Shown here piece after piece: positions 5,217 through 25,863 of a stretch of 25,934 bases of DNA. This stretch comes from a virus (taxonomy: Duplodnaviria; Caudoviricetes): IMG/VR virus record IMGVR_UViG_3300035676_000349, positions 1-25,934 of that record; one strand, written 5' to 3'. Numbering within the stretch: position 1 is the first letter of the stretch; each line of letters begins with the position of its first letter. The notes beneath the pieces were generated by a model that was not told where the DNA came from, searched no databases, and saw only the letters and a list, made by a program, of their open reading frames with translations. The translations under genes were made by a program, and so were the position numbers.

Positions 5217-5218
5217 TA

Positions 5219-9748: not shown

Positions 9749-10357
9749 TTATCCCTCCAATACTTTGACTTGTCCTACTGCTCCACCTGTATCACTCTTA
9801 AAAAGTACATAATCTCTTACCCTGAAATCATCCACCATACCTGCGGTATACTGAAAACAGTTATTACTTGTTGGCGCAATAGGCGTGGTTCCAGAATGCA
9901 AAGGTCTTGCAGTTACATAGCCGTTACCGCTTTTATTATGGAATGTGATATCTTTACCTTGAAGTGACAAGCATACCATCTTAGAGCCTTTAACTCCTGA
10001 ACTGGAATATGATACCTGATTAGTTGACGCTGCTGTAGTATCAGCGTAAACCGCAACATCCGTGAGGTGTGTTGAAAAGTTAAGACCATATTTGTCCATT
10101 AGCTGGTGACCTAGTATCTTTGTCCAATCCGTATAACTCGAAGCGACTCCGCTTGTAACCGTCGGGAATAAAGTGTCTTGCCATATAGCCGATGAACCGT
10201 ATCTAGTTCCCGTTATCGTAATGTATACCTGGTCTGTTCCAGTTACGACATATACCGCATTTCCGGTGGTTCCTAATGAGCCAACATCGGGTCTAGTACT
10301 GCCACCGTAGTCAAAACATGGAACAGTATACTGTTCTTTCTTGAAACCGTTAATCAT
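9749..10357 (-). CDS. Ser/Thr-rich putative virion structural protein, 202 aa
   Basis: AAGGTGA RBS, ATGA overlap with the upstream gene, beta-rich, located in the structural module. No family recognised. Confidence 0.55.
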   Translation of the reverse strand: MINGFKKEQYTVPCFDYGGSTRPDVGSLGTTGNAVYVVTGTDQVYITITGTRYGSSAIWQDTLFPTVTSGVASSYTDWTKILGHQLMDKYGLNFSTHLTDVAVYADTTAASTNQVSYSSSGVKGSKMVCLSLQGKDITFHNKSGNGYVTARPLHSGTTPIAPTSNNCFQYTAGMVDDFRVRDYVLFKSDTGGAVGQVKVLEG

Positions 10358-10606: not shown

Positions 10607-11566
10607 TCAATCGAATGGACATAGTTGTACTCTTAGATGCGTGCATATAGATTCTGCACCCGCTAAGAATAAACGTTCCTTCTTACTACCCCTTACGTTC
10701 TGGTTAAAATCCCAAAGTTGCATTAACATATCATGCATTGGAAATAGTGTCGTGGCAACATCGGGCGCAGTCTTGGATAACTCTGTTATTTGATTTGTAA
10801 GTGTAATTTTTTCGTCTGTGGTTTGTGCATTGGCCAACGTAGTTGACAATTCCTTCAATTTCTTTTCAAGCTCAATGATCTGATTCACAGTAGGAAGATA
10901 TTCAAAGATGTATTTTTTCAACGTGTAATCTGTTCTCTCTAACATTTCGTCTACGGTGTAATCAGCGTTATTCAGTCTGGCTACTAAATCGGCACGTTTC
11001 GGGTCTATAGTTTTGCAAATCTTACTTGCTGATTCCTCTTGGAAGCCATACAAATATGGAACTTTACAGATATCGCTTTCAGGGGGAATGAATACTGGAA
11101 TACCTCTAGCTCGTGCATAACCTACAAAATATTCGACTGAAGGTCTTTCCTTTGCGTACTCTTCTTCCTGCGCCATATCGACCCCAAAAATTCCCAATTC
11201 TTCTACGCCCTCATATACCGCCATTGCTATCATGTAACTAATACTGTTGGTAAAATAGTCAGTACCAAGAGCCTTGATTATATCCTGTAACGGGTATTCA
11301 ACCGACATGGGTATATCGTCGTGCTTTTCGGTCATATATATCGGAACCGTCGAAGCCCTTAAATCATCTATGTAATCTTTATTTCGCTTGCTGTCTAATA
11401 CAGTGCTTCGGTGATGGAGTTCAAAGTGTTTGGTTATATTACTAGCCCCGCCGTTAGGCAATATAGTCTTATACTCATTTAACACCCATATCTCCCATTC
11501 AGGATTGTTATAAGGCGCTTTATCCCTCGTCGATGGTGCGAAACCTACTATAGCTACTTTTCTCAT
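10607..11566 (-). CDS. Putative CMP-nonulosonate glycosyltransferase (CstII/GT42 or Maf-like fold) with a C-terminal coiled coil
   Basis: AAGGAGG RBS. KVAIVGFAPS..WEIWVLNE and TNSISYMIAMAVYEGVEELGIFGVDM parallel the CstII motifs as I recall them (KVIIAGNGPS..FDVFRCNQ; TSGVYMCAVAIALGYKEIYLSGIDF). By-eye alignment only. Confidence 0.6.
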   Translation of the reverse strand: MRKVAIVGFAPSTRDKAPYNNPEWEIWVLNEYKTILPNGGASNITKHFELHHRSTVLDSKRNKDYIDDLRASTVPIYMTEKHDDIPMSVEYPLQDIIKALGTDYFTNSISYMIAMAVYEGVEELGIFGVDMAQEEEYAKERPSVEYFVGYARARGIPVFIPPESDICKVPYLYGFQEESASKICKTIDPKRADLVARLNNADYTVDEMLERTDYTLKKYIFEYLPTVNQIIELEKKLKELSTTLANAQTTDEKITLTNQITELSKTAPDVATTLFPMHDMLMQLWDFNQNVRGSKKERLFLAGAESICTHLRVQLCPFD

Positions 11567-11589
11567 ATAATTTCCTCCTTAAAATAACT

Positions 11590-11613
11590 AAGGAGACCTA
11601 AACAGGTCTCCTT
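11590..11613. terminator. Intrinsic terminator-like hairpin
   Basis: AAGGAGACCT-aaac-AGGTCTCCTT, a 10-bp perfect stem in an intergenic gap with T-rich tails on both strands. Confidence 0.65.
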
Positions 11614-11631
11614 GTTTTTAATCGATATTTT

Positions 11632-12441
11632 TTACGAATAGCAACTCGATACCAATGATAGAGTACCGCCATTCTCTCCGTATGTCGACATACTCTCTAT
11701 AATCCACCTTCCAGTGGATACACCGAGTAGTGTTATGTGTGGATTAACGCCGCATGAAGCAATTCCTATCTGACCAGAAGTTGCCGCTCCGATAGTAGCA
11801 TTAACTCCATCTGTAGAACAAACCCAAACATAGGCAATGTTAGCTGTTGTCAATCCACAGTTAAACTCAAGTGTAACTCTTGAACCTCTTAATGGTGACT
11901 GTAGTAAATACCTGTTGATATCACCGGAAGATGATGACAGGTAGTAATACCCACTTCTAGGTATATTGTCGGATGCCGGTGTTGCGCATGTGCCAACAAT
12001 TACTTGTGCAGTCCAATTCTCAGTCTGTTTGAGATTTCCGTATAGGAAAATCGAATTGGTTGTGTTGATATCCGCAAAGTTACCGGAACTCGATGTGAGT
12101 TTTCCAAATGTTGCCGACGTAGCCGTAACACTACCGAACGTTGCAGATGTAGAGGATACTGTTTCACCCGCTATTGTTACACCCGTAATCGTGTTGGTCG
12201 AGTTGAGAATTGGTATGCTTCCGCAGGAACTAGCAACTACGTTTACGGTGTTAACCGCACTTGAAGCCGTTAATGTTTGACAGTTGACGCAGCTTGAAGC
12301 AACGGCCGAAACGGTGTTAACCAAGTTCGTTGAGTTCAGGTACGGCGAATTTAGTGCGTTGAAATTCGAATATGTTAACAGACCGCTTGTACCTGGAGAC
12401 GAATTCGGATTGGTAGAACCGAAATATGATTGAATAGGCAT
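11632..12441 (-). CDS. Ser/Thr-rich putative head fibre/decoration protein, 269 aa
   Basis: AAAGGA RBS, directly downstream of the major capsid gene. About 29% S+T by manual count, with short beta-strand repeats (VNTVSAVASSC/VNTVNVVASSC; TSATFG x2). Confidence 0.55.
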   Translation of the reverse strand: MPIQSYFGSTNPNSSPGTSGLLTYSNFNALNSPYLNSTNLVNTVSAVASSCVNCQTLTASSAVNTVNVVASSCGSIPILNSTNTITGVTIAGETVSSTSATFGSVTATSATFGKLTSSSGNFADINTTNSIFLYGNLKQTENWTAQVIVGTCATPASDNIPRSGYYYLSSSSGDINRYLLQSPLRGSRVTLEFNCGLTTANIAYVWVCSTDGVNATIGAATSGQIGIASCGVNPHITLLGVSTGRWIIESMSTYGENGGTLSLVSSCYS

Positions 12442-12469
12442 TTTTTCACATCCTTTCTCTTAGTGTGTA

Positions 12470-13480
12470 TTAAGACTCAGCAATAGAGTTTCCAAGACCT
12501 GCGGCACACATAACTATTGCTCTTGGGTCAACCGGATTGCAGTGGAATCTAGCACGTCCACCCCAGTTGTTAGCATCTGTGTTTTCGTCAACCCAACTCT
12601 TTACCTGCAACGGAATTCTGTTTACGAATACAATACCGTTGCACATTTGGTTGTACCTTGAGTCCATCAAATACCAGCAGTCATATCCGCTAGTAATACC
12701 GGATGGATTACTGAGATAATTCCATGTGATTACATTCCATCTACCACATTGGTAGTTATAGGAGTGGTCGGACGTTCCCGGTCTCTGATCTCCATTTGTC
12801 CAAATAGCATCAGCGACTTGTCTCTTGATTCTAGCGTTGTTGGGTATGATAATAGTGTCGGGTTGAATGTCAGCATACTCGCCACTATCTGTTTTAAACT
12901 TCTGCATTAACTCTTCAACCCTACATAGATTGTCGTATGAGAATCCAGCGTTAAAGTAATTCGCCCATGTTCCGGAAGCGGCTTTATATGTATGTGCGAT
13001 AGAGAACAGTGCCAAGGTATCTTGACAAGTATTATCATAGACCTTACTTCCGAAAGTAAAGGTTGTACTAGCTCCTGCGTTTAACATAGCTGCTGCAAAC
13101 TGTGATCTAGTTCTGTAATACGAGCTAACAAAGTTAGACGCTTCTTTTTTGATGTCGACCATTTTGTTGTCCTCAATCATAGTCTTTGTAACCTTGAAAG
13201 ACTGTTTCCATTCTTTGTCTTCTATGATTTTGGAATATCCTTGCTGTTGGTCAGTACTAGGATACGCACCATTTTCTCCAACATCCTCAAACAATCCTTT
13301 GCCTGTTAAACTCGTAAATTTAACAGCCCATTCTTCCGAGTCCATCGTATTGAATATAGCTTCCATGACCTGATGCTCTTTCATTGCCACTGCTTCTGTA
13401 TCAAGCAAAAATTTCTTAATCGGTGCTTGCGAACCTTTGAATAAATCGTCATTTATACCTGAACCTTTTGAAAAAATCAT
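12470..13480 (-). CDS. Major capsid protein (Mu gpT-like HK97 fold)
   Basis: AAGGAG RBS; 336 aa. Motifs FKVTKTMIED, DTLALFSIAH, QPDTIIIP, WYLMDS and GGRARF..DPRAI. Follows the scaffold and decoration genes. Confidence 0.85.
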   Translation of the reverse strand: MIFSKGSGINDDLFKGSQAPIKKFLLDTEAVAMKEHQVMEAIFNTMDSEEWAVKFTSLTGKGLFEDVGENGAYPSTDQQQGYSKIIEDKEWKQSFKVTKTMIEDNKMVDIKKEASNFVSSYYRTRSQFAAAMLNAGASTTFTFGSKVYDNTCQDTLALFSIAHTYKAASGTWANYFNAGFSYDNLCRVEELMQKFKTDSGEYADIQPDTIIIPNNARIKRQVADAIWTNGDQRPGTSDHSYNYQCGRWNVITWNYLSNPSGITSGYDCWYLMDSRYNQMCNGIVFVNRIPLQVKSWVDENTDANNWGGRARFHCNPVDPRAIVMCAAGLGNSIAES

Positions 13481-13503
13481 TAAAAATCAACTCCTTTTTG
13501 TTG

Positions 13504-13529
13504 TAATAAAAAAGACCCTTACGGGTCTT
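13504..13529 (-). terminator. Intrinsic terminator between the decoration and major capsid genes
   Basis: Minus strand AAGACCC-GTAA-GGGTCTT followed by TTTTATT; GNRA loop. Confidence 0.7.
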
Positions 13530-13533
13530 GTGG

Positions 13534-13977
13534 TTAAACAGTTGTCGAATTCTTGAGTATGAACTTACCAACGAAATATTGTGCGCTTGTATCACTCGTG
13601 TTGTGTACAGCGTGGATTTGGAATTGCCCGGTAGTTGCGACGGTGATAGCACCACTAGACGAACACAGAACGTTATACCCCAAACAGGTTGTACCTACAA
13701 CAGCCTCAGCCGTTGAGTGGTCAACTTTATAGTATAAATCCGGCTGTATTACGTGGACAGGATACTCTTTAGATGTACTACCAGTAGTTGCGCATAGTGG
13801 TATAACGTATTTCTTGTTGAAAATCGTAAGATATGTACTCGCAGGTGTACCGGCAAAACCTGTTCCCGTTGAAGTCCTTACTGCCAAACTGTTAATCGGC
13901 TCCGTTTCAGTAGTTCCAGCAAGCATATATTCAAACGGTTCGCCAGTAACATAGGGTGACTTAATAACTTTAATCAT
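13534..13977 (-). CDS. Putative capsid decoration/cement protein, Thr/Ser-rich, 147 aa
   Basis: AAGGAG RBS. Size and position between scaffold and MCP fit this role. About 24% S+T by manual count. Confidence 0.6.
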   Translation of the reverse strand: MIKVIKSPYVTGEPFEYMLAGTTETEPINSLAVRTSTGTGFAGTPASTYLTIFNKKYVIPLCATTGSTSKEYPVHVIQPDLYYKVDHSTAEAVVGTTCLGYNVLCSSSGAITVATTGQFQIHAVHNTSDTSAQYFVGKFILKNSTTV

Positions 13978-13983
13978 TTAAGA

Positions 13984-14811
13984 TCATCTCCTTTTTTCTT
14001 TTTTGAGAAATTTTACCCAATCCTCCTTTTTCGCTTTAGGATTGAGTTTCCTGTAAAAATTCCATTCGCTTTCGTCGACGTGTACCTCGTTCAAATCAAC
14101 ACCTCCGCCATCTGATTGGATATGCTTTTTTGAATTGATGTCGTTTAGTGTTTTCTGTTTTGCGCTTTTGGTTGACAATTCTACGATACGTTTGATGTTC
14201 TGACCTTTCACTAGGTTGAATACCACCCCAACATCTAATTCCTGATTGTGAGATAGTATCTCGTCAATGTCGGACTCAAACTCTTTGAAGTATTCCTCAT
14301 TTTTCAACTTAGCCTTTTCCTCTATAATGCGAGCGACGTTGACCCGCTTTTTCAAGTCTCTTTCATAGTTTTCAAGATAAACCATTTTTTGAGCTACTTC
14401 GGGCGTATACCCACTTTCGACATATTTCTGCCGTTGTGCGGCTGTAACCATTTCATCGAAATTCGTATACCCAAAACTCTTAGCGAATTCATTCTGCTTT
14501 TCCTGAGTAGCTTTTAGCTGATTCTCGGATTCCCTTCTTGCCGCTGCATATTTTGCATTATCGTCATTAGATTGAGTTGGCTTTTTATCAACCCTCTTTA
14601 CCGCAGGTTTAGAGTCCTCGGTATCGTCAGTATCATCAGTGTCGTTGGTATCGTCAGTGCTAGTATCTGTGTCAACATCGTCCGTATCCTCTTCGCCATT
14701 CCAAAAATCCTCGTTATCCATAGGATCTACATGTGATTCTGCTTTCGGGTTATCAGCGACCTCACCCGTTTTTACGCTATCGCTATCATTATCTACATTA
14801 TCCATCCTCAT
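13984..14811 (-). CDS. Capsid scaffolding protein
   Basis: Highly acidic D/T-rich N-terminus, NAKYAAARRE motif, coiled coil and basic C-terminus. Lies between portal and capsid genes. The start may be 14805. Confidence 0.75.
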   Translation of the reverse strand: MRMDNVDNDSDSVKTGEVADNPKAESHVDPMDNEDFWNGEEDTDDVDTDTSTDDTNDTDDTDDTEDSKPAVKRVDKKPTQSNDDNAKYAAARRESENQLKATQEKQNEFAKSFGYTNFDEMVTAAQRQKYVESGYTPEVAQKMVYLENYERDLKKRVNVARIIEEKAKLKNEEYFKEFESDIDEILSHNQELDVGVVFNLVKGQNIKRIVELSTKSAKQKTLNDINSKKHIQSDGGGVDLNEVHVDESEWNFYRKLNPKAKKEDWVKFLKKEKRR

Positions 14812-14847
14812 TCTCCTTTACCTTTTTACGCTCGGTTAGCGAAATTT

Positions 14848-14871
14848 AAAAAAGACCCTTTCAGGTCTTTT
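14848..14871 (-). terminator. Intrinsic terminator upstream of the scaffold gene
   Basis: Minus strand AAAAGACCT-GAAA-GGGTCTTTTTT directly after a stop codon; GNRA loop. Confidence 0.7.
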
Positions 14872-14977
14872 ACTTTTTGCTGCCACCGTTAGCAGCGTCC
14901 TTTTTTGCCGGTGCTTGACTCTTAGGAGAGTCAGCTTTTACAATCTGATTTGCTCCTGCTCCAAAACCTTTAGCCAT
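14870..14977 (-). CDS. 35-aa basic peptide (not in the ORF track)
   Basis: MAKGFGAGANQIVKADSPKSQAPAKKDAANGGSKK. GGGGTGA RBS, overlaps the portal stop and ends at a terminator. Confidence 0.6.
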   Translation of the reverse strand: MAKGFGAGANQIVKADSPKSQAPAKKDAANGGSKK

Positions 14978-16946
14978 CCTTATCACCCCTTTCTGTTTTT
15001 CGTTCACTGGAATACTGGTTTTGTGCCATCTTCATAACTTCTATATTTTGTTTTACTTTGGCCTCATCCATTTTGATTTGGTAGTCAAGCATCTTTTCAG
15101 CTTGAGCCATTTCCATCTCTTTTTGTTTGCCTTGCCGCTCATACTCCTTGTCCATCATTTCCGCTTCCTTCTCCTGCTGCTGCATTTGCGCTTGTTGCTG
15201 TAATTGTTGTTGCTGCATTTCCATTTGTTGTTTTGCCATTTCCTCTTGTTGTTTCTGTTCCTCAATAGCTTGCTGCTTATAGTCGCCGGCGTTAGGATAC
15301 CCAAGACGTTCCATTGCCGCCCAGAATTGCGGCTTTGTCATAAATCCAGCCGATGCGAATTGAATTGTTTGGTTCATTAACCACATCTTGTCTTTTGGTA
15401 TGCCGTCGCCGGATTCAGCAAAGAACAGAAAATCGGTGTTGTAATACCACTCTCCTGAATCGTCCTGCTCAACAAAGTCATATTTGCTGAACTCCCCATA
15501 CTCAGGTTGACCGTTAGTACCCATCTTAAGGTATGGTCTCACCTCGTCATAAAACGCAAGTTTAAATTCAAACATGATCTCAAAAAGCTCTTTGAAAGAA
15601 TTGCGCTTATTGAACCTCTTAGAGTCCATCCTGCCCGTACTCTGATATATTTGAATCTGTTTTGCAAGCCCCGATTTAGCCGTCGTATCAGGTTTACCTT
15701 GATAACTGTCAGTTATACCCAGTGTGTCTTTTGCTGCTTTGTATTGCTGCTGATAGAATTGTAAATCAGGTTGAATATTGGCTTGCAAATTCAGGACATT
15801 CATTGATGACAACTCATCAACCTCGCCACGTACAACTTGATATAAGTCATTTGATAACTTAAATCTGTGGTCGGACTTTGCCGTAACAATAACGCCACCC
15901 CGAAGTATCTTTTCTTCTACTGTAGATATCACTTTCTTGATGCAGTCGGCTTGGTCTCTGATAACATCCACATCCGATTGACCGCCAAAATGGAAAGGAA
16001 CCGGAACATTTTTTCTAATAATAATCGGATATCTAGTTGGGCAAAAGTATTTTATCTTCGTACCTGCGGGTATAATTTCACCATTATACTTCGCAACATC
16101 CATATCAAGCGTTTCATATTCCTCGACTTTACCGTCAATCCTACGTGCAAAATAGTTATCGAGATTTTCAAGTGTTGTATCGTTAGTCCACGTGTATTTA
16201 CTTATCCTACCATCTTTATTCTTGTACCACTTAGTTATAACTGTCACGTTATCAGTGTCGTTCTGGTTATCACTTTCACCGTCAATGGTAGCATATTCAG
16301 GATACTCTTCCCCGATATCAGGTAATGTGACCTTATATCTACGCTCAACCCAATCCTTTGACTCAGATGAAACGGTGAAGAAGTATTCCATTTTTTGAAT
16401 GTTAAAAACGCCAGGTTGGGGTATCAATTGTTTTGGATGCCTATTATCTAGTTTAATCTCACCTCGATAGAGATGATGTTCAAAATCAGGATCCCACTCC
16501 ACGACAATTATAGAGAATCCTTGTACAGGTGTAGTCCTTTCGTTCTCGTCATTAATGCGGTATATATCAGACTCAAACATATCGTTCTTAATGGAGTCCT
16601 CTATAGTCATCTCAAGTTGCTCTTTGCCTCGCCGTTTACTTTTAACAGCAGGACAGGGGATTGTGGTATCCACCTGACTCTCAATCATTTCATACACAAC
16701 ATTGATTACGTTATTAGCCTTACGCCGTGAATTAGGTGGTGTCCTATTGTCGTTAACATCCAAATCAACTTCATGTGTTCCTATGAATAACTTCTCTCTA
16801 TCATCCATCAACACCGTATCATATTGGTTTTTAGCCTGGATGAATTGTTCTTGAGCTTTACGTAGCATCTTTTCATTGCTCTTTTCTTCTTTGCGCTTTT
16901 CCACAACCTCACCCACTTTTTTTCTAAATCTATCAAAAATTCCCAC
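14970..16946 (-). CDS. Portal protein (P22-like, with Gln-rich C-terminal coiled coil)
   Basis: Likely GTG start at 16946 (GGGTGA RBS; the track gives 16967). Motifs NVINVVYEMIESQV, YPIIIRKN..FGGQSDVDVIRDQ, LGITDSYQG..TTAKSG and a long Q/E-rich barrel helix. Confidence 0.9.
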   Translation of the reverse strand: MGIFDRFRKKVGEVVEKRKEEKSNEKMLRKAQEQFIQAKNQYDTVLMDDREKLFIGTHEVDLDVNDNRTPPNSRRKANNVINVVYEMIESQVDTTIPCPAVKSKRRGKEQLEMTIEDSIKNDMFESDIYRINDENERTTPVQGFSIIVVEWDPDFEHHLYRGEIKLDNRHPKQLIPQPGVFNIQKMEYFFTVSSESKDWVERRYKVTLPDIGEEYPEYATIDGESDNQNDTDNVTVITKWYKNKDGRISKYTWTNDTTLENLDNYFARRIDGKVEEYETLDMDVAKYNGEIIPAGTKIKYFCPTRYPIIIRKNVPVPFHFGGQSDVDVIRDQADCIKKVISTVEEKILRGGVIVTAKSDHRFKLSNDLYQVVRGEVDELSSMNVLNLQANIQPDLQFYQQQYKAAKDTLGITDSYQGKPDTTAKSGLAKQIQIYQSTGRMDSKRFNKRNSFKELFEIMFEFKLAFYDEVRPYLKMGTNGQPEYGEFSKYDFVEQDDSGEWYYNTDFLFFAESGDGIPKDKMWLMNQTIQFASAGFMTKPQFWAAMERLGYPNAGDYKQQAIEEQKQQEEMAKQQMEMQQQQLQQQAQMQQQEKEAEMMDKEYERQGKQKEMEMAQAEKMLDYQIKMDEAKVKQNIEVMKMAQNQYSSERKTERGDKDG

Positions 16947-16965
16947 AGCATCACCCGCTTTTTGC

Positions 16966-17006
16966 AAAATAAAAAAGCCAGGATACGGTTTTTCGTATCC
17001 TGGCTT
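16966..17006 (-). terminator. Strong intrinsic terminator directly upstream of the portal gene
   Basis: Perfect 13-bp stem AAGCCAGGATACG-aaaaac-CGTATCCTGGCTT followed by TTTTATTTT on the minus strand. Confidence 0.8.
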
Positions 17007-17035
17007 ATTAGGTGCTTACGCCCTCTCGCTCAGTG

Positions 17036-17188
17036 TTATATACTTAGTTCACTGCTACTCGTAGCAATGTCAGCTAGTTTTACCGCCCTTTCGTTTTTAC
17101 ATCTTGGGCATTTAATGTATATGGTGTCTTGGTCTCGGAAAAACTGCGTCTGCCTACAGCAGTCGCATTTAACACGTGTTTTTTTCAT
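17036..17188 (-). CDS. Mu Com-like zinc-ribbon protein, 50 aa (not in the ORF track)
   Basis: MKKTRVKCDCCRQTQFFRDQDTIYIKCPRCKNERAVKLADIATSSSELSI. CxxC...IKCPRC pattern; AAAGGTGG RBS. Confidence 0.7.
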   Translation of the reverse strand: MKKTRVKCDCCRQTQFFRDQDTIYIKCPRCKNERAVKLADIATSSSELSI

Positions 17189-17209
17189 TTTCTTCTACCA
17201 CCTTTCTTC

Positions 17210-17713
17210 TTACACGCCAATGAAATCACTCCTTAATAGACCGTATTCAATTACATCAACATATTCTCCATTTTTCCAAGCCGCTTGTATTCTAGTACCC
17301 TCTTTTCTAAAACCCAACTTCATAGCGAGCGATTTAAAGCCCCCATTTGTTTTAAGCGTACCTGCATATATCCGATGCAAATTTAAAGCCCTAAAACCGT
17401 GGTATATTATCATCTGGCACGCTTCAAAAGCAATACCCTGTCCTTTATATGTTTCCAATAGAAATACCTTTAACTCTGCTGACCGATTAATGAAATTTAT
17501 ATCCTCAAGACTTACACGACCTGCGAATTTACTATGACACACTATGTTCATAATAAGGTTATTGGCATCTGTTACTTTACACTTCGTTATAGGCATCCTG
17601 CCTAACTGGCTACCTTTGAGATTATCTAAATCGTTTAAAAGTTCTAAGTTATCCTCGTAATGCTGGTTATATATGTTAGCATCTAACTCACATTTAAAAC
17701 CTTTGAGTTTCAT
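17210..17713 (-). CDS. GNAT (RimJ/RimL-type) N-acyltransferase
   Basis: Likely start ATG 17713 (TGATG overlap with the aminotransferase stop; the track gives 17776). Motifs INFINRSAEL, YKGQGIA, LNLHRIYAG and KLGFRKEG. Confidence 0.85.
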   Translation of the reverse strand: MKLKGFKCELDANIYNQHYEDNLELLNDLDNLKGSQLGRMPITKCKVTDANNLIMNIVCHSKFAGRVSLEDINFINRSAELKVFLLETYKGQGIAFEACQMIIYHGFRALNLHRIYAGTLKTNGGFKSLAMKLGFRKEGTRIQAAWKNGEYVDVIEYGLLRSDFIGV

Positions 17714-18768
17714 CAATAGGGCTCCTTTCTCCACGCTTGGCATATTTCCTTTTCGACCTGCTGAACAACGGGGCATTGATTCTGGTCATATCCTAAGCTT
17801 CGAAATAGTGGCATCTGGAATATTGGTTTTACGTACCCTCTTTTAACTCCAAACTCGCACCTATCGTGTATACCCGTCGTCCACTCAGGTATATCACCAC
17901 GCCAAGCATACCTGTAAAAACTATGCTCAGTATTAGGTCGTACCTTAACGTTAAAACATTCTGCATCCCTACGGTAGCCTTTCATAATACCGTCAAGCTT
18001 TTTAAGTTGTTCTCTAGCAATAGCCGCACTTAATTCTGTCATTCTTAGATTCATACCGACCATACCAATAATATTTGCTAATTTTGACACTGTTATATCT
18101 TTTCGGTTCATGTCATTTATAGCGGCTTCAGCGTGATTCATACTGAGTCGTAAGTTAAGATCTAACTCACTATCATTTGTAACTACCATACCCCCCTCCC
18201 CACAATGTACGTGTTTATGGTAGTTAAGGGAATATACGCTGATGTCACCTAGTGTTGTTGTATAATTACCGTAATACCTTGTCGCCGGAGCTTGTGCTGC
18301 ATCGACTATAAGTTTTAATCCGTAAGTCCTTGATATTTCTTGTAATCTATCGTAGTCGCACGATTGACCAAATAAGTCAACAGCTATAATAGCCCTTGTT
18401 TTATCGGTAATTTTTTTAACTACATCATTGGGGTCGATACAAAAGTAATCGGGTTCAATATCTGCAAATACTGGTTTAGCTCCAAACAATAGTGGTATAG
18501 ATGCGCTACACGTCATGCTGTAAGGCGTTACAATTACCTCGTCGTCGGTTCCTAAACCTATAGCATTCAACGCCATCCATAGTCCCGACGTCGCACTATT
18601 ACAGGCTACAGCATTATCAACCTTAAAATGTTTTTTCCATTCGTTTTCTAACTCACTGATTTCAAACCCTCCATAAAATTCTCCTGACCAATTACCTTTA
18701 TATCCTGAAAGAATACCCCTTTGCATGACTCTTTGGACTGCTTCTAATTCTTCTTTACCTATGCTCAT
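17713..18768 (-). CDS. DegT/DnrJ/EryC1/StrS PLP-dependent sugar aminotransferase (PseC-like role)
   Basis: Motifs ACNSATSGL, GAKPVFADI, VDAAQA, SLNYHKHVHCGEGGMVVT (PLP lysine) and GMNLRMTELSAAI. Confidence 0.92.
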   Translation of the reverse strand: MSIGKEELEAVQRVMQRGILSGYKGNWSGEFYGGFEISELENEWKKHFKVDNAVACNSATSGLWMALNAIGLGTDDEVIVTPYSMTCSASIPLLFGAKPVFADIEPDYFCIDPNDVVKKITDKTRAIIAVDLFGQSCDYDRLQEISRTYGLKLIVDAAQAPATRYYGNYTTTLGDISVYSLNYHKHVHCGEGGMVVTNDSELDLNLRLSMNHAEAAINDMNRKDITVSKLANIIGMVGMNLRMTELSAAIAREQLKKLDGIMKGYRRDAECFNVKVRPNTEHSFYRYAWRGDIPEWTTGIHDRCEFGVKRGYVKPIFQMPLFRSLGYDQNQCPVVQQVEKEICQAWRKEPY

Positions 18769-18788
18769 TTTTATACCTCACTATAATT

Positions 18789-18965
18789 TTACACTTCGTC
18801 TTCGTCTTCGTCTTCGTCTTCGTCTTCGTCTTCGTCTTCGTCTTCGCCATATCTTTCTTTTGATAGCAATTCGCTGGCTACTTTAACATCTTTAATGCTA
18901 TGTCGTTTCATGTAATCTCTTACATCTAATTCCCAATTATTTGTGCTACCACAAAATAATTCCAT
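18789..18965 (-). CDS. 58-aa protein with an (ED)8E acidic tail (not in the ORF track)
   Basis: MELFCGSTNNWELDVRDYMKRHSIKDVKVASELLSKERYG(ED)8EV. GGAGG upstream; fills the gap between two coupled genes. Confidence 0.6.
   Translation of the reverse strand: MELFCGSTNNWELDVRDYMKRHSIKDVKVASELLSKERYGEDEDEDEDEDEDEDEDEV
18795..18845. repeat. Perfect hexamer repeat (TTCGTC)x8 plus TTC
   Basis: Read directly from the sequence. Confidence 0.95.
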
Positions 18966-18966
18966 T

Positions 18967-19749
18967 TTATATCAACTCCTCCATAAGCTCCAACGCTTTT
19001 AATCCATCGTACATGGTACACTTGAGTTCTTCCTTACCCTCAAGGAAATTATATGCGTTATCTATGACGTACCTAGTGTGATGGTCGAATCGTGCGGGTA
19101 CTGGGTCATTACCTATGCGCTGTTCCCTGAAGACATATCCATCCTCAAACAGTATTCGTAACGCCCAAAATCTAAGTATCTCTTCAGACATGAACTCATG
19201 TATGTCCATACACTGTCTGGGTACGCCGAAGTAATTAAATATATCTAACGCATGGGTTCCCGTATGTAGCATACCCCTATTAAATCTACAGTAGCCGTGT
19301 ACAGCTTTACCATGTTCTGCCTTTAACTGCTGATACTCCGGAATAAACCTCCTTGTATAATCTACAAGTATGGGTATTTTGCGGTCTTCGTAAAACTTTA
19401 TCACTTCTTTAACTTCTACAGAAGTCATACACAGCGGTTTCTCGCATATTACAAGTTTAGGTTTGTAACTATAGAGACTTAATGCTAACAGGTTATAATA
19501 GTGCGTATCGTCAGGCGTTGCTATAATAATTACATCATATTCAAGGCAAATATCGGTACGTGTGTCCCAAAATGCATATGCTTTGCGTTCTTTATCTACG
19601 CTTTTATCGTATGCCCAAATTTCAAAATTCCCATTCTCCTTTAGTGCTTTAGCGTAAGATATTGTTTTATGCTCGTTACCGGAACCAGGGGCGTCGTTTA
19701 AACACCCCATATTACCACACCCGACTATTAGCGCATTATACTTCGCCAT
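18967..19749 (-). CDS. Gfo/Idh/MocA family NAD(P)-dependent oxidoreductase
   Basis: Likely start ATG 19749 (GAGGTG RBS; the track gives 19755). Motifs LIVGCGNMG, IIATPDDTH, VICEKP, VDYTRRF and HTGTHALD. Confidence 0.88.
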   Translation of the reverse strand: MAKYNALIVGCGNMGCLNDAPGSGNEHKTISYAKALKENGNFEIWAYDKSVDKERKAYAFWDTRTDICLEYDVIIIATPDDTHYYNLLALSLYSYKPKLVICEKPLCMTSVEVKEVIKFYEDRKIPILVDYTRRFIPEYQQLKAEHGKAVHGYCRFNRGMLHTGTHALDIFNYFGVPRQCMDIHEFMSEEILRFWALRILFEDGYVFREQRIGNDPVPARFDHHTRYVIDNAYNFLEGKEELKCTMYDGLKALELMEELI

Positions 19750-20524
19750 ACGCACACCTCAACTCGTGGTAGTAATCCTTCTGCTCAACGTTTTTGTTAA
19801 TGGAAGGTAGCTCAGGATAAGTCATAAAAAATTCAATCACTTCTTTAAGCCCGAAATACACGCCCTTATGCGCCTCGAATAAAAACTTAAGTAGCTCATA
19901 ATCGTCCTTGGTATCAATGCATAGTCTAAGATGACTGTAGTTAACTTGTGGATTCTTGTCTAAAACAACACACATGTTTTTAAACCGCTTGTAATTGCGT
20001 GGGTTTTTGTAAATCCAAGTAGAAACATGTTGTCTATCTACAGGATTGTCAACTTCAGCCGCAACCTTCTCAAGTGTCTTAAGCCAGAAGGCTTGAACGT
20101 CCATACCTCTAGGATATGTCCTTTGTATTACATTACTACAGTAATCATTCACCGGCTGATTACCCAGACTGCTTATAACGTCATCTACTGCGTATTTATC
20201 GATACATGGGCAATCGCTAGTAATCTCAACTATCATGTCGGTTTTTACGATTTTAGCCGTCCGTAAAACTCTTTCCAATACGTCGTTCTCGTCTATGTCA
20301 AATGCTGCGTATTTACATTTTAGTTGGTCGCACAACTCAAATATTTCCTTGTCACCATGTGTGCAAGCCACGATTATATTATCAATAAACTTGCTCATCC
20401 TGAGCCTTTCTATGATGTGCTGTAGTACTGGTTTACCTGCGAGTGGAAACATAGTCTTGCCAAATAGCCTTGTTGACTTCATTCGTGCTTGGATGATTGC
20501 GGTTACTAGGAATTGTCCGTACAT
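19736..20524 (-). CDS. spsF: SpsF-like CMP-nonulosonate synthetase (cytidylyltransferase)
   Basis: Motifs AIIQARMKSTRLFGK, ENDVLER, ITSDCPCID, RTYPRGMDV, RQHVSTWI and LRLCIDTKDDY. Confidence 0.88.
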   Translation of the reverse strand: MYGQFLVTAIIQARMKSTRLFGKTMFPLAGKPVLQHIIERLRMSKFIDNIIVACTHGDKEIFELCDQLKCKYAAFDIDENDVLERVLRTAKIVKTDMIVEITSDCPCIDKYAVDDVISSLGNQPVNDYCSNVIQRTYPRGMDVQAFWLKTLEKVAAEVDNPVDRQHVSTWIYKNPRNYKRFKNMCVVLDKNPQVNYSHLRLCIDTKDDYELLKFLFEAHKGVYFGLKEVIEFFMTYPELPSINKNVEQKDYYHELRCAYGEV

Positions 20525-21690
20525 AAACCCACCCCCACTTCGAATTTAGGTTTTATATTACAATGCATTTTACCTAAATCATATTTTAAACTTACACTGA
20601 ATAGTCTATTGTTGATTAATTGACTTTCTACATGCGCATTAAAGTCAAATAAACTTATGCCGATGTAATCACAAAAATTTTCTACGTATCTAATATCTAG
20701 CCTATGATCTAAAAGCTTTACCGCTTTTATAGCCTCTTCTCTACTTGCACCAATCTCACGTATCAAATAGCATTGCCAGTCGGTTTCGTAGCCAAAACCA
20801 AATTTCATATACTTCAACCACTGATTAACCAATAGGTGGTCTCCATCAACGCTTGTCTCTCTTGCAGACCTTCCTATTTGCCCAACATACTCGTCATATC
20901 TACCTTTAAGACCATATACCCTAGAATATAGTGTATTGTGTACCTGACCCCACTCTTTTACGTAGTGTTGCAAGAATATAGCTTTTTTACCCGATGAATA
21001 AACCCTAAGCATTGGAAAATCAAACATGTGCAATTGCTTATAGGTTATAGGTTCACACCCATATAACTCGGCTTCCTCGTCGGTTATTATTAAGTCCTTA
21101 GCATTACAACCTTTTATAGTGTTATTATTTACGATAGTTAAAGCGTCTCCACTGTAAACGTTATCTGACAACCCAAATATAGCCGCCGGATTCTCACCCT
21201 GAATTATCAAGGGTATTGCTTTTTCACACGCTACTCTATATGCTGACGCCCACAGAGAATATTCAGAACTTCTTACAAGATTTCCGTACTTGAAGAAATC
21301 TCTCTTTGTCAAATTCATCATTACTTTAGGGTCTGGTCTAATTTCTATCAAGTCAAAACCATAAGACCGTAGATTCTCGATGTTATGCGTTCCAACTTTA
21401 GTTCGTCCGTCAGGTGCATTACACACCAATAACGGATTAAGTCCGAGTTCATATTTTGCATATAGGGCTTGAAAGTGACTGTCTTTACCCCCAGATACCC
21501 CGATAACGCAATCGTAAGAACTACCGTGTGCTTTTGCCCAATCGACAATATTCTGTAATTCTTTTTTCCTGGCATCCCAATCAATACTCTTTCTTGATTC
21601 CCAATAGTTGCACGCACCACAAACACCATTTTCGTCAAAGACGATATTAGGTCTTGTGTCAGGTTGAACACATTTTTTGCAATACCTCAT
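20506..21690 (-). CDS. N-acetyl sugar amidotransferase (PseA/WbuX/PtmG family, PP-loop)
   Basis: AAGGAGG RBS. Motifs CKKCVQPDTRPNIVFDENGVCGAC, YDCVIGVSGGKDSHFQ, IPLIIQGEN and LKYMKFGFG. Confidence 0.9.
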   Translation of the reverse strand: MRYCKKCVQPDTRPNIVFDENGVCGACNYWESRKSIDWDARKKELQNIVDWAKAHGSSYDCVIGVSGGKDSHFQALYAKYELGLNPLLVCNAPDGRTKVGTHNIENLRSYGFDLIEIRPDPKVMMNLTKRDFFKYGNLVRSSEYSLWASAYRVACEKAIPLIIQGENPAAIFGLSDNVYSGDALTIVNNNTIKGCNAKDLIITDEEAELYGCEPITYKQLHMFDFPMLRVYSSGKKAIFLQHYVKEWGQVHNTLYSRVYGLKGRYDEYVGQIGRSARETSVDGDHLLVNQWLKYMKFGFGYETDWQCYLIREIGASREEAIKAVKLLDHRLDIRYVENFCDYIGISLFDFNAHVESQLINNRLFSVSLKYDLGKMHCNIKPKFEVGVGLCTDNS

Positions 21691-21721
21691 AATCTTTTTA
21701 CCTCCTTAAGGGTTAAAGTAT

Positions 21722-21808
21722 TTATTTTTCTTTAAAGCTTTTAGCTAGTAGTACTACTAGACTAACCATAAATCCAAGATACGCTACTATTATAATTACA
21801 TTCTGCAT
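21722..21808 (-). CDS. 28-aa single-pass membrane peptide (not in the ORF track)
   Basis: MQNVIIIVAYLGFMVSLVVLLAKSFKEK. GGAGG 10 nt upstream; hydrophobic core with a basic tail. Confidence 0.5.
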   Translation of the reverse strand: MQNVIIIVAYLGFMVSLVVLLAKSFKEK

Positions 21809-21810
21809 AC

Positions 21811-22443
21811 TCATAGTACCTCCGCTAATTGCTTTGGTGTCCTTGCGAACTCTCCTGCATCCAGACCCGTAGAATCCTCAAGCTTGTAATGCACCTCGTA
21901 GATATCAGGTTTATATGTATTAAACAGTTCCCAGTCCGTAGTATGGTCAGATATGGCCGTATTCTCTAAGCACATAAAAGTCCCAAATGCATCATCATAA
22001 TCCTGGAAAGTAGCCGGATATTTGCGAACGCTGTAGAGTGCCGTGCAGTTATGCATCTCGTCAATTTTGCGCTCATCGGATAAATCCCCTATACTGACAT
22101 ATACCGGAATATTACGGGGTACATGGCCTATTAGGTAATCCTTAGTCCTGTCATTAGCTATCTTAACAAACGGTATTTTGTGATGCAATAAGAATTTTAA
22201 GGAGACTATATCGAATACACTTGAAGTTACTTTGTAGCCGTATGCCATGGCGTATTTGTACATGTACTCAAATACGTCATACTCAAGGGGTATGTTATCA
22301 CCCGCTGATTCGAATAGCTGAGTCTTGAAGATAATTTCGTATTTCTTGTTATCTATCTTGTAAATCTCATCAATCATCTGCCTGACTATAGCTTTGTCGT
22401 TTTTGAATGTATTAGCAGATATATCAAGTATGAATTGTCCCAT
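21811..22443 (-). CDS. neuB: Divergent minimal NeuB/PseI-family nonulosonic acid synthase lacking the C-terminal SAF domain
   Basis: FILDISAN, FKTQLF, SSVFD..S..FL, IPFVKIAN, KYPA, ISDHT, EVHYKL and GLDA are colinear with NeuB motifs (IIAEIG.N, VKFQ, STPFD, YKIAS, YP, SDHT, EKHFTL, GPD). Confidence 0.75.
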   Translation of the reverse strand: MGQFILDISANTFKNDKAIVRQMIDEIYKIDNKKYEIIFKTQLFESAGDNIPLEYDVFEYMYKYAMAYGYKVTSSVFDIVSLKFLLHHKIPFVKIANDRTKDYLIGHVPRNIPVYVSIGDLSDERKIDEMHNCTALYSVRKYPATFQDYDDAFGTFMCLENTAISDHTTDWELFNTYKPDIYEVHYKLEDSTGLDAGEFARTPKQLAEVL

Positions 22444-22951
22444 TGAAATCCTCCTTGTCTATACTAAAGTATAATGAATGGTAATACTTACCTTCCCAAT
22501 ACTTGCGATTGGGCATGTATACATTAATAGCATTGTAGGTATTAGATATCTTTTTCCAGAATTTAATTGCTGAATTACTCTCGTAACACTCGCCGTATAT
22601 GGTCTTTAGATTAAGTTGATTAAAACCTCTATCTAGTAGCATATGTACAGCAGCCGTCCCATTCTTCATACCCTGAGATATAGGTTTTAGTATTATACTT
22701 ATCTCGCCCAAGGAATTTTCCCACTCGATATTTAGTAAACCACACATCCCTATGAAGCTAGGTGATGTCTTGTTGTCGTTATATATACCCCACCAACGGC
22801 TGTTAGAGTTGCGATTACAAACCACATTCTTGTAAAATTCGGCTTGCATCTCCTGTGTTAGATGGTATGGTGTTCTTAGCGTATGTAGTTGCTGATTTCG
22901 CCATAGCCTAACCTCTTCCATGTTGGCTAACGATAACTCCTTAAACTCCAT
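22424..22951 (-). CDS. GNAT N-acetyltransferase (PseH-like)
   Basis: Motifs VRLWRNQ, FIGMCGLLNIEW, GFNQLNLKTIYGE and NSAIKFWKK. Adjacent to the pseB homolog. Confidence 0.8.
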   Translation of the reverse strand: MEFKELSLANMEEVRLWRNQQLHTLRTPYHLTQEMQAEFYKNVVCNRNSNSRWWGIYNDNKTSPSFIGMCGLLNIEWENSLGEISIILKPISQGMKNGTAAVHMLLDRGFNQLNLKTIYGECYESNSAIKFWKKISNTYNAINVYMPNRKYWEGKYYHSLYFSIDKEDFNGTIHT

Positions 22952-23807
22952 CGATAGACCTCCTTATCTTTTCAACGCTTAAAAATACGGGGTTATTACC
23001 CGAAGACAAACCTTGAGTTCCAAGAATCTCATCCGGAGGTATAATCCATTCGTGTAACTTCTCACCTTCACGAATACCCGTAAAATATGGTTTACAACCT
23101 AAAGCCTCTACCAAGTCAATTATGCGTATAGAGGGCATGTCCGGTATCATGAGTTCCCCGGGTTTACCTGACTCTAACGCCTTGTCCACTAAAGCAATGG
23201 CGTCTGCCATCGATAACCAGAATCTCGTCATACGCTCGTCCGTAACTGGAAGAGACTTAGCACCTTCGGACATGAGTTTCCTGTAATAAGGTAATACACT
23301 CCCAGCACTACCTATAACATTGCCGTATCTGCAAACGATACCGCCCTGATTAAGCCATAACTTTTCGGCCATTTTCTTAGAGGTTCCATAGGTGTTTACA
23401 GGAAGTACCGCTTTGTCAGTGGATATGAGTATTTTAGTTATAAAGGGATTCAAACAATCCAATAAATTTTGCGTACCATTGACGTTAATTGAAAGGCACT
23501 CTTGCGGGTTCTTCTCACATGCATCTATGCACTTGATAGCCGCAGCGTGTATGACATGAGTTACAAGTCTTGTCGCATGTTTTAGACGTTCTTTGTCTCT
23601 AAGGTCGCCCAAAATCCATGTGATGTTAGCTGGGTTGCCCAACTCTTCCCTGAGTTGTTTTTGTTTAAGCCAATCTCTTGAATAGATAGTGATAGGAATT
23701 TTACACTGTACGTTATCCTTTTTTATGTATTTACCTTGGGATGTGCAGAAATGGTGTTTCAAGTAAGCACTTCCGAATGAGCCGGTTCCTCCGGTTATTA
23801 ATAGCAT
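22941..23807 (-). CDS. pseB: UDP-N-acetylglucosamine 4,6-dehydratase (PseB/FlaA1-like)
   Basis: Motifs ITGGTGSFG, YSRDWLKQ, HAAAIK, STDKAV, YGTSK, RYGNVIGS.GSV, TDERMTRFW and GIREGEKLHE. Confidence 0.9.
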   Translation of the reverse strand: MLLITGGTGSFGSAYLKHHFCTSQGKYIKKDNVQCKIPITIYSRDWLKQKQLREELGNPANITWILGDLRDKERLKHATRLVTHVIHAAAIKCIDACEKNPQECLSINVNGTQNLLDCLNPFITKILISTDKAVLPVNTYGTSKKMAEKLWLNQGGIVCRYGNVIGSAGSVLPYYRKLMSEGAKSLPVTDERMTRFWLSMADAIALVDKALESGKPGELMIPDMPSIRIIDLVEALGCKPYFTGIREGEKLHEWIIPPDEILGTQGLSSGNNPVFLSVEKIRRSIDGV

Positions 23808-23845: not shown

Positions 23846-25444
23846 TTATTTTATTATACCCCATTTTTGCGCCAAAAGCAACTTATCTTCCTTAGATGCA
23901 CGAAAATAATCATCTTGACGGTCGGGGGGTAAATCATTTATACTTATATGTTTTTCCTGTTTTTTAGCCGTACCTCCTTGACCTGATAACGCAGTATGTA
24001 AAGCTATGGCGTACGCCATAATAAGGTCGTCATGCTTTCCATCTTGAGCTACAGGTTTACCCCTATCATCCCTAACAAACGTTAACATTTCATCCAATGT
24101 TGGTATGTCATTAATTTTATCAACGTAATCCCTAACATACTCAACAAGGTCTGATATTATAGCTTGACGATTATACTTGTCCGTTCTAAATCCATATTTC
24201 TGCTGTATATCGTGGGTTATGCTATCCGTCTGTTGGCGTAAGTAAATTTTGGGATACTTTAATCTTTGAAGATTCAACACAAATCCAGGGTTAAAATTGA
24301 CTTCAGGGTTGAGTAAAGCGGTGTTGTAATAATACCCACCATAAGTAGCCTCTTCCGCTAGTTGGTCTATGTCAATATGCCCATGGAAAACAGCCACTTG
24401 CTCATAAGTCGAAGAGTCTAATATCTGTATTGCGTCGTAATCTCCGGTAACATTCCCCTCCGCTAAGTCAATTCCAGCAACGTACTTTTGGTTAGGTTGC
24501 GGATGTTGGTATATAGTCCACAATCCATTGGCATCCGGAATGAATTTGGAGGTGGAGTTAGGTGGTGTTGTTGTTGGTGTTGTGGAGGAGTTTGGGTTAA
24601 ACCTACCCTTAATGGGCTTATAGTATGGAGTTTTACTCGACTTAGCCTTTGGGGCATTTAAATGCACAATCCTATTCTGCACTTTCTGTGCATCGAATAC
24701 AGTCTTACCAAGTACACCCCACTGTCCTAAGCAATAGACCATGTAGTAATAAGGGTCGGTCTCCTTGAATCCCTCAAGAACGTTTATAGCCTCTTGGTCT
24801 AGAAATCTATTGTCTTTATAAGTTGTATGAGATGTAGTTGTGTTTGGGTGGTTAACGTCAAAAAATCTAGACTTGAGCCAATGGGATACTGATATCGGAT
24901 TGAAAGTTAAAATTATCTGTTTATAATATTTTGTTTCACCCCTCAACCTGATATCTAATTGTTGAAAGTCTTCTAACGTTAACTCACTCGCCTCTTCAAT
25001 CCAGATTGAGGTTATGTTATAAATAGATTTTAATTTCTCTACGTCGTCCAGTCCTGAGAATATGATTTCAGATCCATTGATTTTATACTTAATACGCAGG
25101 TCGGTCTGGTTGAAATCAAAATTTGCAGTGGATTCATAGTCGCCTATTTGCGAACGCAATTGCTGAAAACAAGATTCCCTTAATGTTTTACCGACTTTTC
25201 GCACCACAAGTATTCTATGACCCGCCTGAGATTTTATACGGCGTATTATTTTTTGACCGGCAAAAATTGATTTACCACTACCTCCACCACCCATTAGAAC
25301 TAAATACCTTTTATTATCATCGTAAAAATTCCAATATGCTTTATTAGTACGATCGTAAATTTTGATTAGCGGTAGGATTAATTTTCTATCGGTCTTATTA
25401 GCTTTTTCATATAGTTCGAGTAGTTCTTGTAATTTATCCAACAC
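23846..25444 (-). CDS. terL: Terminase large subunit
   Basis: GTG start with GGGTGA RBS. Walker A GGGGSGKS, Walker B IWIEEASE and coupling motif LTFNP. RNase H-like nuclease residues GIDLAEG, DYDAI and HDDLIMA. Confidence 0.95.
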   Translation of the reverse strand: MLDKLQELLELYEKANKTDRKLILPLIKIYDRTNKAYWNFYDDNKRYLVLMGGGGSGKSIFAGQKIIRRIKSQAGHRILVVRKVGKTLRESCFQQLRSQIGDYESTANFDFNQTDLRIKYKINGSEIIFSGLDDVEKLKSIYNITSIWIEEASELTLEDFQQLDIRLRGETKYYKQIILTFNPISVSHWLKSRFFDVNHPNTTTSHTTYKDNRFLDQEAINVLEGFKETDPYYYMVYCLGQWGVLGKTVFDAQKVQNRIVHLNAPKAKSSKTPYYKPIKGRFNPNSSTTPTTTPPNSTSKFIPDANGLWTIYQHPQPNQKYVAGIDLAEGNVTGDYDAIQILDSSTYEQVAVFHGHIDIDQLAEEATYGGYYYNTALLNPEVNFNPGFVLNLQRLKYPKIYLRQQTDSITHDIQQKYGFRTDKYNRQAIISDLVEYVRDYVDKINDIPTLDEMLTFVRDDRGKPVAQDGKHDDLIMAYAIALHTALSGQGGTAKKQEKHISINDLPPDRQDDYFRASKEDKLLLAQKWGIIK

Positions 25445-25735: not shown

Positions 25736-25863
25736 AGTAGAGCAGTGTGCAGTAGAGCAGCGTGCAGTAGAGCAGTGTGCAGTAGAGCAGCGTGCAGTAG
25801 AGCAGCGTGCAGTAGAGCAGCGTGCAGTAGAGCAGCGTGCAGTAGAGCAGCGTGCAGTAGAGC
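25736..25863. repeat. 15-bp tandem repeat AGTAGAGCAG[C/T]GTGC, 8 copies plus 8 bp
   Basis: Read directly. Copies 1 and 3 carry T, the others C. Confidence 0.95.

Follow-up and report, generated by a model that had tools for sequence, protein, structure and literature searches.

The IMG/VR virus record IMGVR_UViG_3300035676_000349 is a linear, 32% complete record of a tailed phage (Caudoviricetes), and the whole record of 25,934 nucleotides is the window analysed here. In this window, a cluster of eight sugar-pathway genes lies between the genes of the terminase large subunit (terL) and the portal, and a 319-residue protein with the fold of the sialyltransferase CstII is encoded by the second gene after that of the major capsid protein (MCP). 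As predicted from the genes, the folds, the co-occurrence of enzyme and pathway and a tripeptide motif, this phage probably O-glycosylates its outer virion proteins with a phage-made, pseudaminic-type nonulosonate via the 319-residue enzyme, and the sites used are probably Ser-Thr-Gly/Ala-like. The original prediction, which read the locus as a virion glycosylation system, is supported with the corrections given below.

The CstII-fold enzyme and its phage family

The 319-residue protein (10607–11566, minus strand) is composed, in its AlphaFold model (pLDDT 91), of an alpha/beta domain (residues 1–168), assigned as a CstII-fold transferase by the model and by fold searches, and a long C-terminal coiled coil (residues 172–319). 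CstII is the top Foldseek match of the model (E 3e-4) and ranks first for residues 1–168 in VIA, with a Z score of 11.3 and a root-mean-square deviation (rmsd) of 3.1 over 153 aligned residues. Additionally, the family profile aligns weakly with the N-terminal and 'AIALGYKEIYLSGIDF' blocks of CstII (profile against PDB, E 0.04), and the invariant Asn30 of the family is aligned with the asparagine of CstII FRCN. H51 is the sole invariant histidine of the family; in CstII the catalytic base is His188.

The original prediction staked its CstII/Maf-like transferase on a GT42, Maf or GT29 fold in this protein, and a CstII fold is what both Foldseek and VIA find. The fold and the gene position thus stood, whereas membership in a named family did not: the protein, 14–17% identical to CstII, has no family match in Pfam, PHROGs, NCBIfam or PDB sequence searches, and no profile match to GT42 (Pfam and NCBIfam), Maf or GT29. 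Maf membership was rejected, the domains PF01973 and PF20157 being absent from the protein and hhalign to phage Maf giving a probability of 0.7%, and one member showing a weak signal at the family level (E 8.8e-4); no Maf structure is among the Foldseek and VIA fold lists, for which a wide VIA search was not run. GT29 membership was likewise rejected, with no PF00777 sialylmotifs and a non-significant hhalign to phage GT29. The protein has 242 homologues, its Atlas clusters are 92–98% viral, and relatives are encoded on 413 IMG/VR stretches. Judged by its modelled fold and its context, the 319-residue protein is like a CMP-ulosonate transferase, yet belongs to a phage family of its own that shares this fold.

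The same fold also occurs in thiamine pyrophosphokinase (TPK; Z 9.5) and MptE-type HPPK (Z 9.3), the nearest named Atlas cluster is the MptE-like PF01973 (0.80), and half of the protein is coiled coil, all of which would suit a TPK/MptE-like pyrophosphotransferase or a structural or assembly protein that is no glycosyltransferase (GT), with the Ser/Thr bias being structural. We consider this very unlikely, because CstII ranks higher, with 153 aligned residues versus 122–139, because Asn30 falls on the FRCN asparagine, and because such a protein would leave the co-occurrence with the synthase NeuB unexplained, as it would the homologous structural proteins that lack the motif where the gene is absent (both below).

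The position of the gene is conserved. Among 81 loci examined, 15 had no recognisable MCP and one had no call; in the 65 loci with both genes called, the transferase gene lies two to three genes after the MCP gene in 53 and at other distances in 12. These phages have podo-, HK97- and SPP1-type heads, and the neighbours of the family genes are capsid and neck genes, not flagellin. Some family members reach 500–630 residues (L381 at 499–2274, L218 and L232). The L381 enzyme bears an intein-like insert, with weak LAGLIDADG/intein matches, directly after a conserved EEY motif, suggesting that the insertion site marks an essential active-site segment.

Among the 50,697 records of INPHARED, the transferase has one match, NeuB three (one being a bacterial contig), the dehydratase PseB six and the cytidylyltransferase one. 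No INPHARED record appears on more than one of the four lists, so the whole system is without a cultured model there. The only cultured transferase carrier in INPHARED is Microcystis phage Mvi-Yong1342-1 (PP496355.1; XAN61349.1, L093:34781-35584), in which the gene lies just before terS and is labelled 'type 11 methyltransferase'; Pfam finds no methyltransferase domain in its product.

The nonulosonate donor pathway

As originally described, the eight sugar genes are co-oriented and mostly overlapping: five of the seven junctions overlap, and the other two are gaps of 120 and 198 nt, each with a small open reading frame (ORF). From the terL side, all on the minus strand, they encode a PseB-like UDP-GlcNAc 4,6-dehydratase (22941–23807; PF02719, E 3.5e-62; best NCBIfam model PseB, 254 bits, below the cut-off of 408), a GNAT N-acyltransferase that is a PseH-like candidate (22424–22951; PF13302, weak PseH match TIGR03585), a minimal NeuB/PseI-type nonulosonate synthase of 210 residues, a TIM barrel without SAF domain (21811–22443; PF03102, 25.9 bits, cut-off 22.1), and a WbuX/PseA-family N-acetyl sugar amidotransferase predicted to form acetamidino groups (20506–21690; TIGR03573, 285 bits, above the cut-off of 203). 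Then follow a CMP-ulosonate cytidylyltransferase (CTP_transf_3, SpsF/PseF-like; 19736–20524; PF02348, E 6.8e-29), a Gfo/Idh/MocA NAD-dependent oxidoreductase (18967–19755; PF01408, its PDB relatives being Gfo/Idh/MocA oxidoreductases), a DegT/PseC-like sugar aminotransferase (17713–18768; PF01041, E 1.7e-67; PseC 168 bits versus LegC 130 bits, both below cut-off) and a second GNAT N-acyltransferase of 167 residues from its likely start (17210–17713; PF13302). Because six of the eight genes pass the Pfam cut-off with E < 1e-6 and the NeuB and WbuX matches lie above their Pfam and NCBIfam cut-offs, respectively, the assignments are not due to chance.

For PseB, PseC, PseH and PseF, superfamily matches are present and equivalog scores fall below the curated cut-offs. 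WbuX alone passes an NCBIfam cut-off, with PseB and PseC as the best-scoring but sub-threshold models, a pattern that makes a pseudaminic acid (Pse)-type sugar, though not one particular stereoisomer, the likely product. The original prediction had listed PseB, PseC, PseH, PseG, PseI and PseF together with a PseA-family enzyme. The PseB-like, PseC-like, GNAT, NeuB, cytidylyltransferase and WbuX members were recovered, NeuB in minimal form; PseG is not among the cluster genes, the sixth of which encodes the Gfo/Idh/MocA oxidoreductase.

The short NeuB is, as judged from its conservation and model, not decayed despite its 210 residues, because it has 357 homologues of similar length, invariant residues and a confident barrel. 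Specifically, its model (pLDDT 96) is a barrel of eight strands, with NeuB, SpsE and PseI making up its ten best fold matches (TM 0.76–0.80), and the invariant K40, K94, Y142, H167, E183, H185 and D195, which we take to be the metal and phosphoenolpyruvate (PEP) residues of the NeuB family, align with canonical NeuB. The subfamily is phage-type, occurring in 49 viral loci versus 15 contigs of metagenome-assembled genomes (MAGs) from scattered phyla (185,579 genomes searched), several of these contigs having terminase and portal genes. The MAG contigs (L322–L336), from unrelated phyla, bear phage clusters and are probably misbinned phage; they could pass for bacterial nonulosonate loci. PseB, DegT, cytidylyltransferase and GNAT genes occur together in 32 of the 49 short-NeuB loci, and all gene types of the window in five. 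A CstII-fold enzyme is encoded in 35 of the 49 short-NeuB records (319-residue family in 10, true Maf in 22, three being shared, and GT29 in six) and in 8 of the 10 near-complete ones.

The donor cassettes vary among transferase phages, with NeuC-type, PseB-type, transketolase, methyl, formyl and deacetylase genes. At least seven other records carry sugar genes between terL and portal. The original prediction had itself raised the concern of an assembly chimera, and the record is indeed a linear metagenomic fragment, such that the cluster might stem from a bacterial island for flagellar glycosylation and have been joined to the phage by misassembly. We give this almost no credence: the cluster has the base composition of the structural genes (GC 0.36–0.42, GC3 0.33–0.45), the repeated terL–sugar–portal order recurs across records, and the short NeuB is of the phage type (the reads themselves lay outside the analysis).

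Co-occurrence of the transferase with the donor pathway, on which the original prediction also depended, is found across related phages. NeuB is present in 33 of 76 transferase records (19/49 in a first set, made up of the longer of the 81 loci, and 14/27 in a further set) versus none of 82 capsid-matched controls. The controls are capsid kin without the transferase, 50 from the window's MCP family and 32 of the HK97 type, with no NeuB in either group; for the HK97-type set, the transferase was judged from the 10-kb locus alone. Among near-complete records, NeuB occurs in seven of eight with the transferase versus 0 of 25 controls. In G042 and G171, the transferase gene even lies inside a NeuB–NeuC–cytidylyltransferase run.

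Several observations weigh against a phage-made donor handed to this enzyme. PseG, the UDP-sugar hydrolase, was not found in the window by NCBIfam and further profile searches. All 49 related records of one set and all 34 of another score below its cut-off, G163 having a single probable fusion, so no gene explains the UDP-removal step across the family. The Gfo oxidoreductase was tried as a substitute, an idea weakened by its presence in just 19 of the 49 short-NeuB loci and by the complete record G137, which has neither Gfo nor PseG. The C-terminal SAF/antifreeze-like domain (PF08666) was not found in the 210-residue NeuB, and canonical NeuB requires its SAF domain for catalysis. Many of the 50 first-set controls are near-identical gut phages, such that Fisher p values overstate independence. 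The nearest head-module relative with the transferase (L012/L118) has no sugar cluster between terL and portal and few motifs, and NeuB was not found in its 46%-complete record. Moreover, 68% of the window phage's genome is missing, and the cluster may feed another enzyme.

It is conceivable, therefore, that the 319-residue enzyme glycosylates the virion with a host CMP-ulosonate (Neu5Ac, Kdo or Pse) and that the cluster serves another transferase, for example a Maf encoded in the portion of the genome that is missing. NeuB was not detected in 43 of 76 transferase records, most of them fragments and one (G036) complete, and it is also missing from the Microcystis phage in culture; in G111, G123 and G129, a closely similar cluster accompanies both a true Maf and a 319-residue-family enzyme. 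We regard this alternative as unlikely, given NeuB in seven of the eight near-complete records, the complete G137 with cluster and 319-residue-family enzyme and no Maf, and the transferase genes inside the donor runs of G042 and G171.

The Ser-Thr-Gly/Ala motif in virion proteins

For all 8000 tripeptides, observed counts were compared with those expected from the composition of each protein; the comparison covered 934 proteins of the 81 transferase loci, after de-duplication at 60%, and 380 control proteins. STG (280 versus 106 expected, x2.6) and STA (261 versus 117, x2.2) are the top two tripeptides of the transferase loci apart from the enzyme's own motifs, whereas the observed/expected ratios (O/E) in control proteins are 0.89 for STG and 0.96 for STA. 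They again rank as the top two of 8000 among 495 held-out proteins, which are encoded at 51 new loci (STG 193 versus 67, STA 182 versus 77 expected). In line with this, across seven homologous families of small outer head/neck proteins, each found in both sets, the motif is present in 35 of 51 proteins from transferase phages versus 7 of 93 control proteins. No ST[AG] enrichment was found in internal and non-structural proteins: portal, protease, tape measure, terminase and MuF proteins together have 20 sites where 22.4 are expected, and those of the controls have 26 where 23.3 are. The status of a protein as 'outer' was assigned from gene position and Pfam labels. ST[AG] in NeuB proteins was set aside as acceptor evidence, since it reflects a conserved enzyme motif.

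In the window, the Ser/Thr-rich structural proteins reported near the transferase were confirmed: Ser and Thr make up 24–29% of proteins of 147, 269 and 716 residues versus 7–13% of enzymes. The best candidate acceptor is the fibre-like protein of 716 residues (3114–5264, minus strand), which lies outside the region first predicted and has 21-residue repeats, 27% Ser and Thr, weak matches to a tail-fibre PHROG and a cement domain, and 14 ST[AG] sites versus 2.2 expected, mostly repeat copies. A 269-residue post-MCP protein (11632–12441, minus strand; 29% Ser and Thr, one ST[AG] site) is a candidate head decoration or fibre protein and acceptor; its Atlas look-alikes are all viral, and the same slot in the close relative L380 has three sites. 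Further candidate acceptors are the 147-residue pre-MCP protein (13534–13977, minus strand; 24% Ser and Thr, two sites) and a 202-residue protein (9749–10357, minus strand; 22% Ser/Thr), which is syntenic in close relatives and has two sites in each of its L380 and L381 orthologues and zero in the window copy. The Ser/Thr-richness of the 147-residue slot was rejected as a transferase-specific sign, as transferase-negative relatives also have 22–24%. In two close relatives with enzymes 57–59% identical, the gene order is kept and neighbouring proteins have two to seven ST[AG] sites. The MCP (12470–13480, minus strand; PF25209, phrog_371) has zero.

Two results do not fit the motif reading. Excluding the fibre, the window has 3 ST[AG] sites versus 3.8 expected, which is chance, and Ser-Ser pairs are commoner there than ST[AG]; in addition, four genomes without the 319-residue family show an O/E near 2, on 7–11 counts. 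Taken together, the motif evidence is strong at the level of the family and moderate at that of the window.

In transferase-negative relatives of the same capsid family (L120–L196), collagen-like Gly-X-Y tripeptides (TGP, PQG, GPQ) dominate, suggesting a different fibre strategy. In many phages (L197–L244; 22 of 49 records), a true Maf (PF01973 and PF20157) adjoins terL or the sugar cluster, and others have GT29; the virion genes of Maf/GT29 phages are Ser/Thr-rich without the STG motif, and four Maf-only genomes show no STG enrichment in their Ser/Thr-rich virion genes. By their gene content, these phages look like parallel virion-glycosylation variants.

The true Maf in 22 of 49 short-NeuB phages could also speak for modification of the host surface (flagellin, S-layer or capsule), which would serve to keep out superinfecting phages or to convert the serotype. 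Flagellin is a target of Maf-type enzymes, according to passages of PMC3426422, and capsule-changing prophage genes that modify a nonulosonate are described as proven in passages of PMC12053666 (epaAB). This alternative seems improbable to us, since the genes of the window are co-oriented in a late head operon rather than placed as morons or lysogeny genes would be, motif enrichment follows the transferase and falls on outer proteins of the phage itself, and general Pfam, PHROGs and NCBIfam scans of the window found no flippase, polymerase or membrane GT, nor a membrane anchor or export partner for any GT. A role of the sugar in DNA hypermodification might be considered as well, because phage glycosyltransferases often modify DNA (stated in the part of PMC12619734 consulted) and the cluster adjoins terL. 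It is highly improbable: the same scans found no base-hydroxylase or thymidylate-synthase-type partner in the window, the transferase lies among head genes, and the motif signal needs a protein acceptor.

Every gene of the window is on the minus strand, in the layout of a podovirus-like late operon. From terL (23846–25444; PF04466, TIGR01547 above cut-off), which flanks the cluster upstream, the order is eight sugar genes, the P22-like portal as the downstream flank (14970–16967; PF16510, phrog_156), scaffold, the 147-residue gene, MCP, the 269-residue gene and the 319-residue gene, followed by two small genes and by those of a beta-helix spike, a LamG protein, an SU10-type adaptor, a nozzle-like protein, the 716-residue fibre with its repeats and two long proteins that are likely for ejection. 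The host may be a Firmicutes bacterium, judging from ribosome sites of the AGGAGG type and from the capsid, which has relatives in gut proviruses and in Bacillus phage PK1. A strong intrinsic-terminator-like hairpin (16975–17006, minus strand) lies between sugar cluster and portal and may regulate read-through into the head genes; it is preceded by a 50-residue Cys-pair (zinc-ribbon-like) ORF (17039–17188, minus strand). The gaps of the cluster hold an ORF of about 58 residues with an ED repeat at its end and a 6-nt tandem repeat at 18794–18846 (gap 18790–18965, minus strand) and a hydrophobic ORF of about 30 residues (gap 21720–21810, minus strand). A 15-nt tandem repeat of 8.5 copies (25736–25863) lies upstream of the small gene preceding terL. 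A sigma-70 promoter scan of the window gave 43 matches versus 47.7 expected, which is chance level, and an Rfam search gave none.

Proposed mechanism, known systems and meaning

We propose that, late in infection, the PseB-like enzyme would dehydrate host UDP-GlcNAc, as in the known Pse route, after which the PseC-like enzyme would aminate C4 and a GNAT would acylate the product. UDP would be removed by a host-supplied enzyme or possibly by the Gfo oxidoreductase, which could epimerise instead. The minimal NeuB would condense the sugar with PEP, the cytidylyltransferase would activate it with CTP, WbuX would turn an acetamido into an acetamidino group, and, in the cytoplasm, the 319-residue transferase would place the sugar on decoration, neck and fibre proteins. 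Most likely, the particle would thereby gain a charged, hydrated and chemically variable coat that would alter its sticking, degradation or environmental recognition.

In mycobacteriophages (Che8 and others), phage GTs add sugars to proteins of the capsid or tail (Freeman et al. 2023, PMID 37329881, as related in passages of PMC11256854 and PMC12619734), and the predicted system resembles these in using phage-encoded GTs on virion proteins of a tailed phage. In Maravista, however, the GT genes sit close to the genome's 3' end (PMC11256854), whereas in the window the head operon includes both the donor pathway and a CstII-fold enzyme, and the motif occurs in small outer proteins rather than in the MCP; those mycobacteriophage passages make no mention of a nonulosonate donor pathway.

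Maf-dependent O-glycosylation of flagellin with Pse or legionaminic acid (Leg) is described for Aeromonas, Campylobacter and Clostridium (passages of PMC3426422 and PMC13317340). The likeness lies in cytoplasmic CMP-nonulosonate transfer to Ser/Thr of a filament or structural protein, in a CstII/TPK-like domain and in PseB/C/H/I/F/A-type genes. Unlike Maf, the window enzyme is half the size, has no PF01973 or PF20157 and carries a C-terminal coiled coil, and its gene lies among capsid genes; the window also has no PseG and a minimal NeuB, and a tripeptide motif is implicated. With Campylobacter CstII of GT42, the enzyme shares the core fold and two motif blocks, but its identity is low, it has no family match, and its predicted acceptor is a protein, versus galactose of lipooligosaccharide for CstII.

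Among viruses, the Megavirinae fibril clusters also combine virus-encoded nucleotide-sugar pathways with GTs and put rare bacterial amino-sugars on the particle. These are, however, giant viruses of eukaryotes with UDP-linked hexoses and polysaccharide chains, and the word 'nonulosonic' is absent from the paper on them (PMC10117803). The Acinetobacter prophage genes epaA and epaB are phage-borne nonulosonate enzymes with cytidylyltransferase and oxidoreductase domains, converting host Pse to 8-epi-Pse in the capsule. They differ in being two genes that alter the host's own Pse, with no synthase, transferase or virion link, the word 'virion' being absent from the text that describes them (PMC12053666). 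We found no literature on a phage system for virion glycosylation with nonulosonates, within a search that mostly excluded subscription papers and left out supplements.

For the family as a whole, we see an evenly balanced case that a self-contained, sequon-directed system of protein O-nonulosonylation is common to hundreds of uncultured tailed phages with heads of several types. It would consist of a phage-specific CstII-fold transferase for Ser-Thr-Gly/Ala, outer proteins that gain the motif with the enzyme, swappable donor cassettes (Pse-, Leg- and Neu-type, with acetamidino, formyl and methyl tailoring) and a SAF-less synthase without PseG, giving a variable sialic-like 'serotype'. Phage virion glycosylation as such is known; the donor class, the transferase family and the candidate sequon would be new. 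As far as we found, such glycosylation is held to be rare and is documented mainly for mycobacteriophages. The minimal NeuB and the missing hydrolase point to undescribed enzymology, and a transferase that is small and soluble and acts at a tripeptide motif of its acceptors would make a useful tool in glycoengineering. If the proposal is true, virion sugar chemistry would be a common, overlooked layer in uncultured phages, and many 'auxiliary metabolic' sugar genes would be reassigned to particle building.

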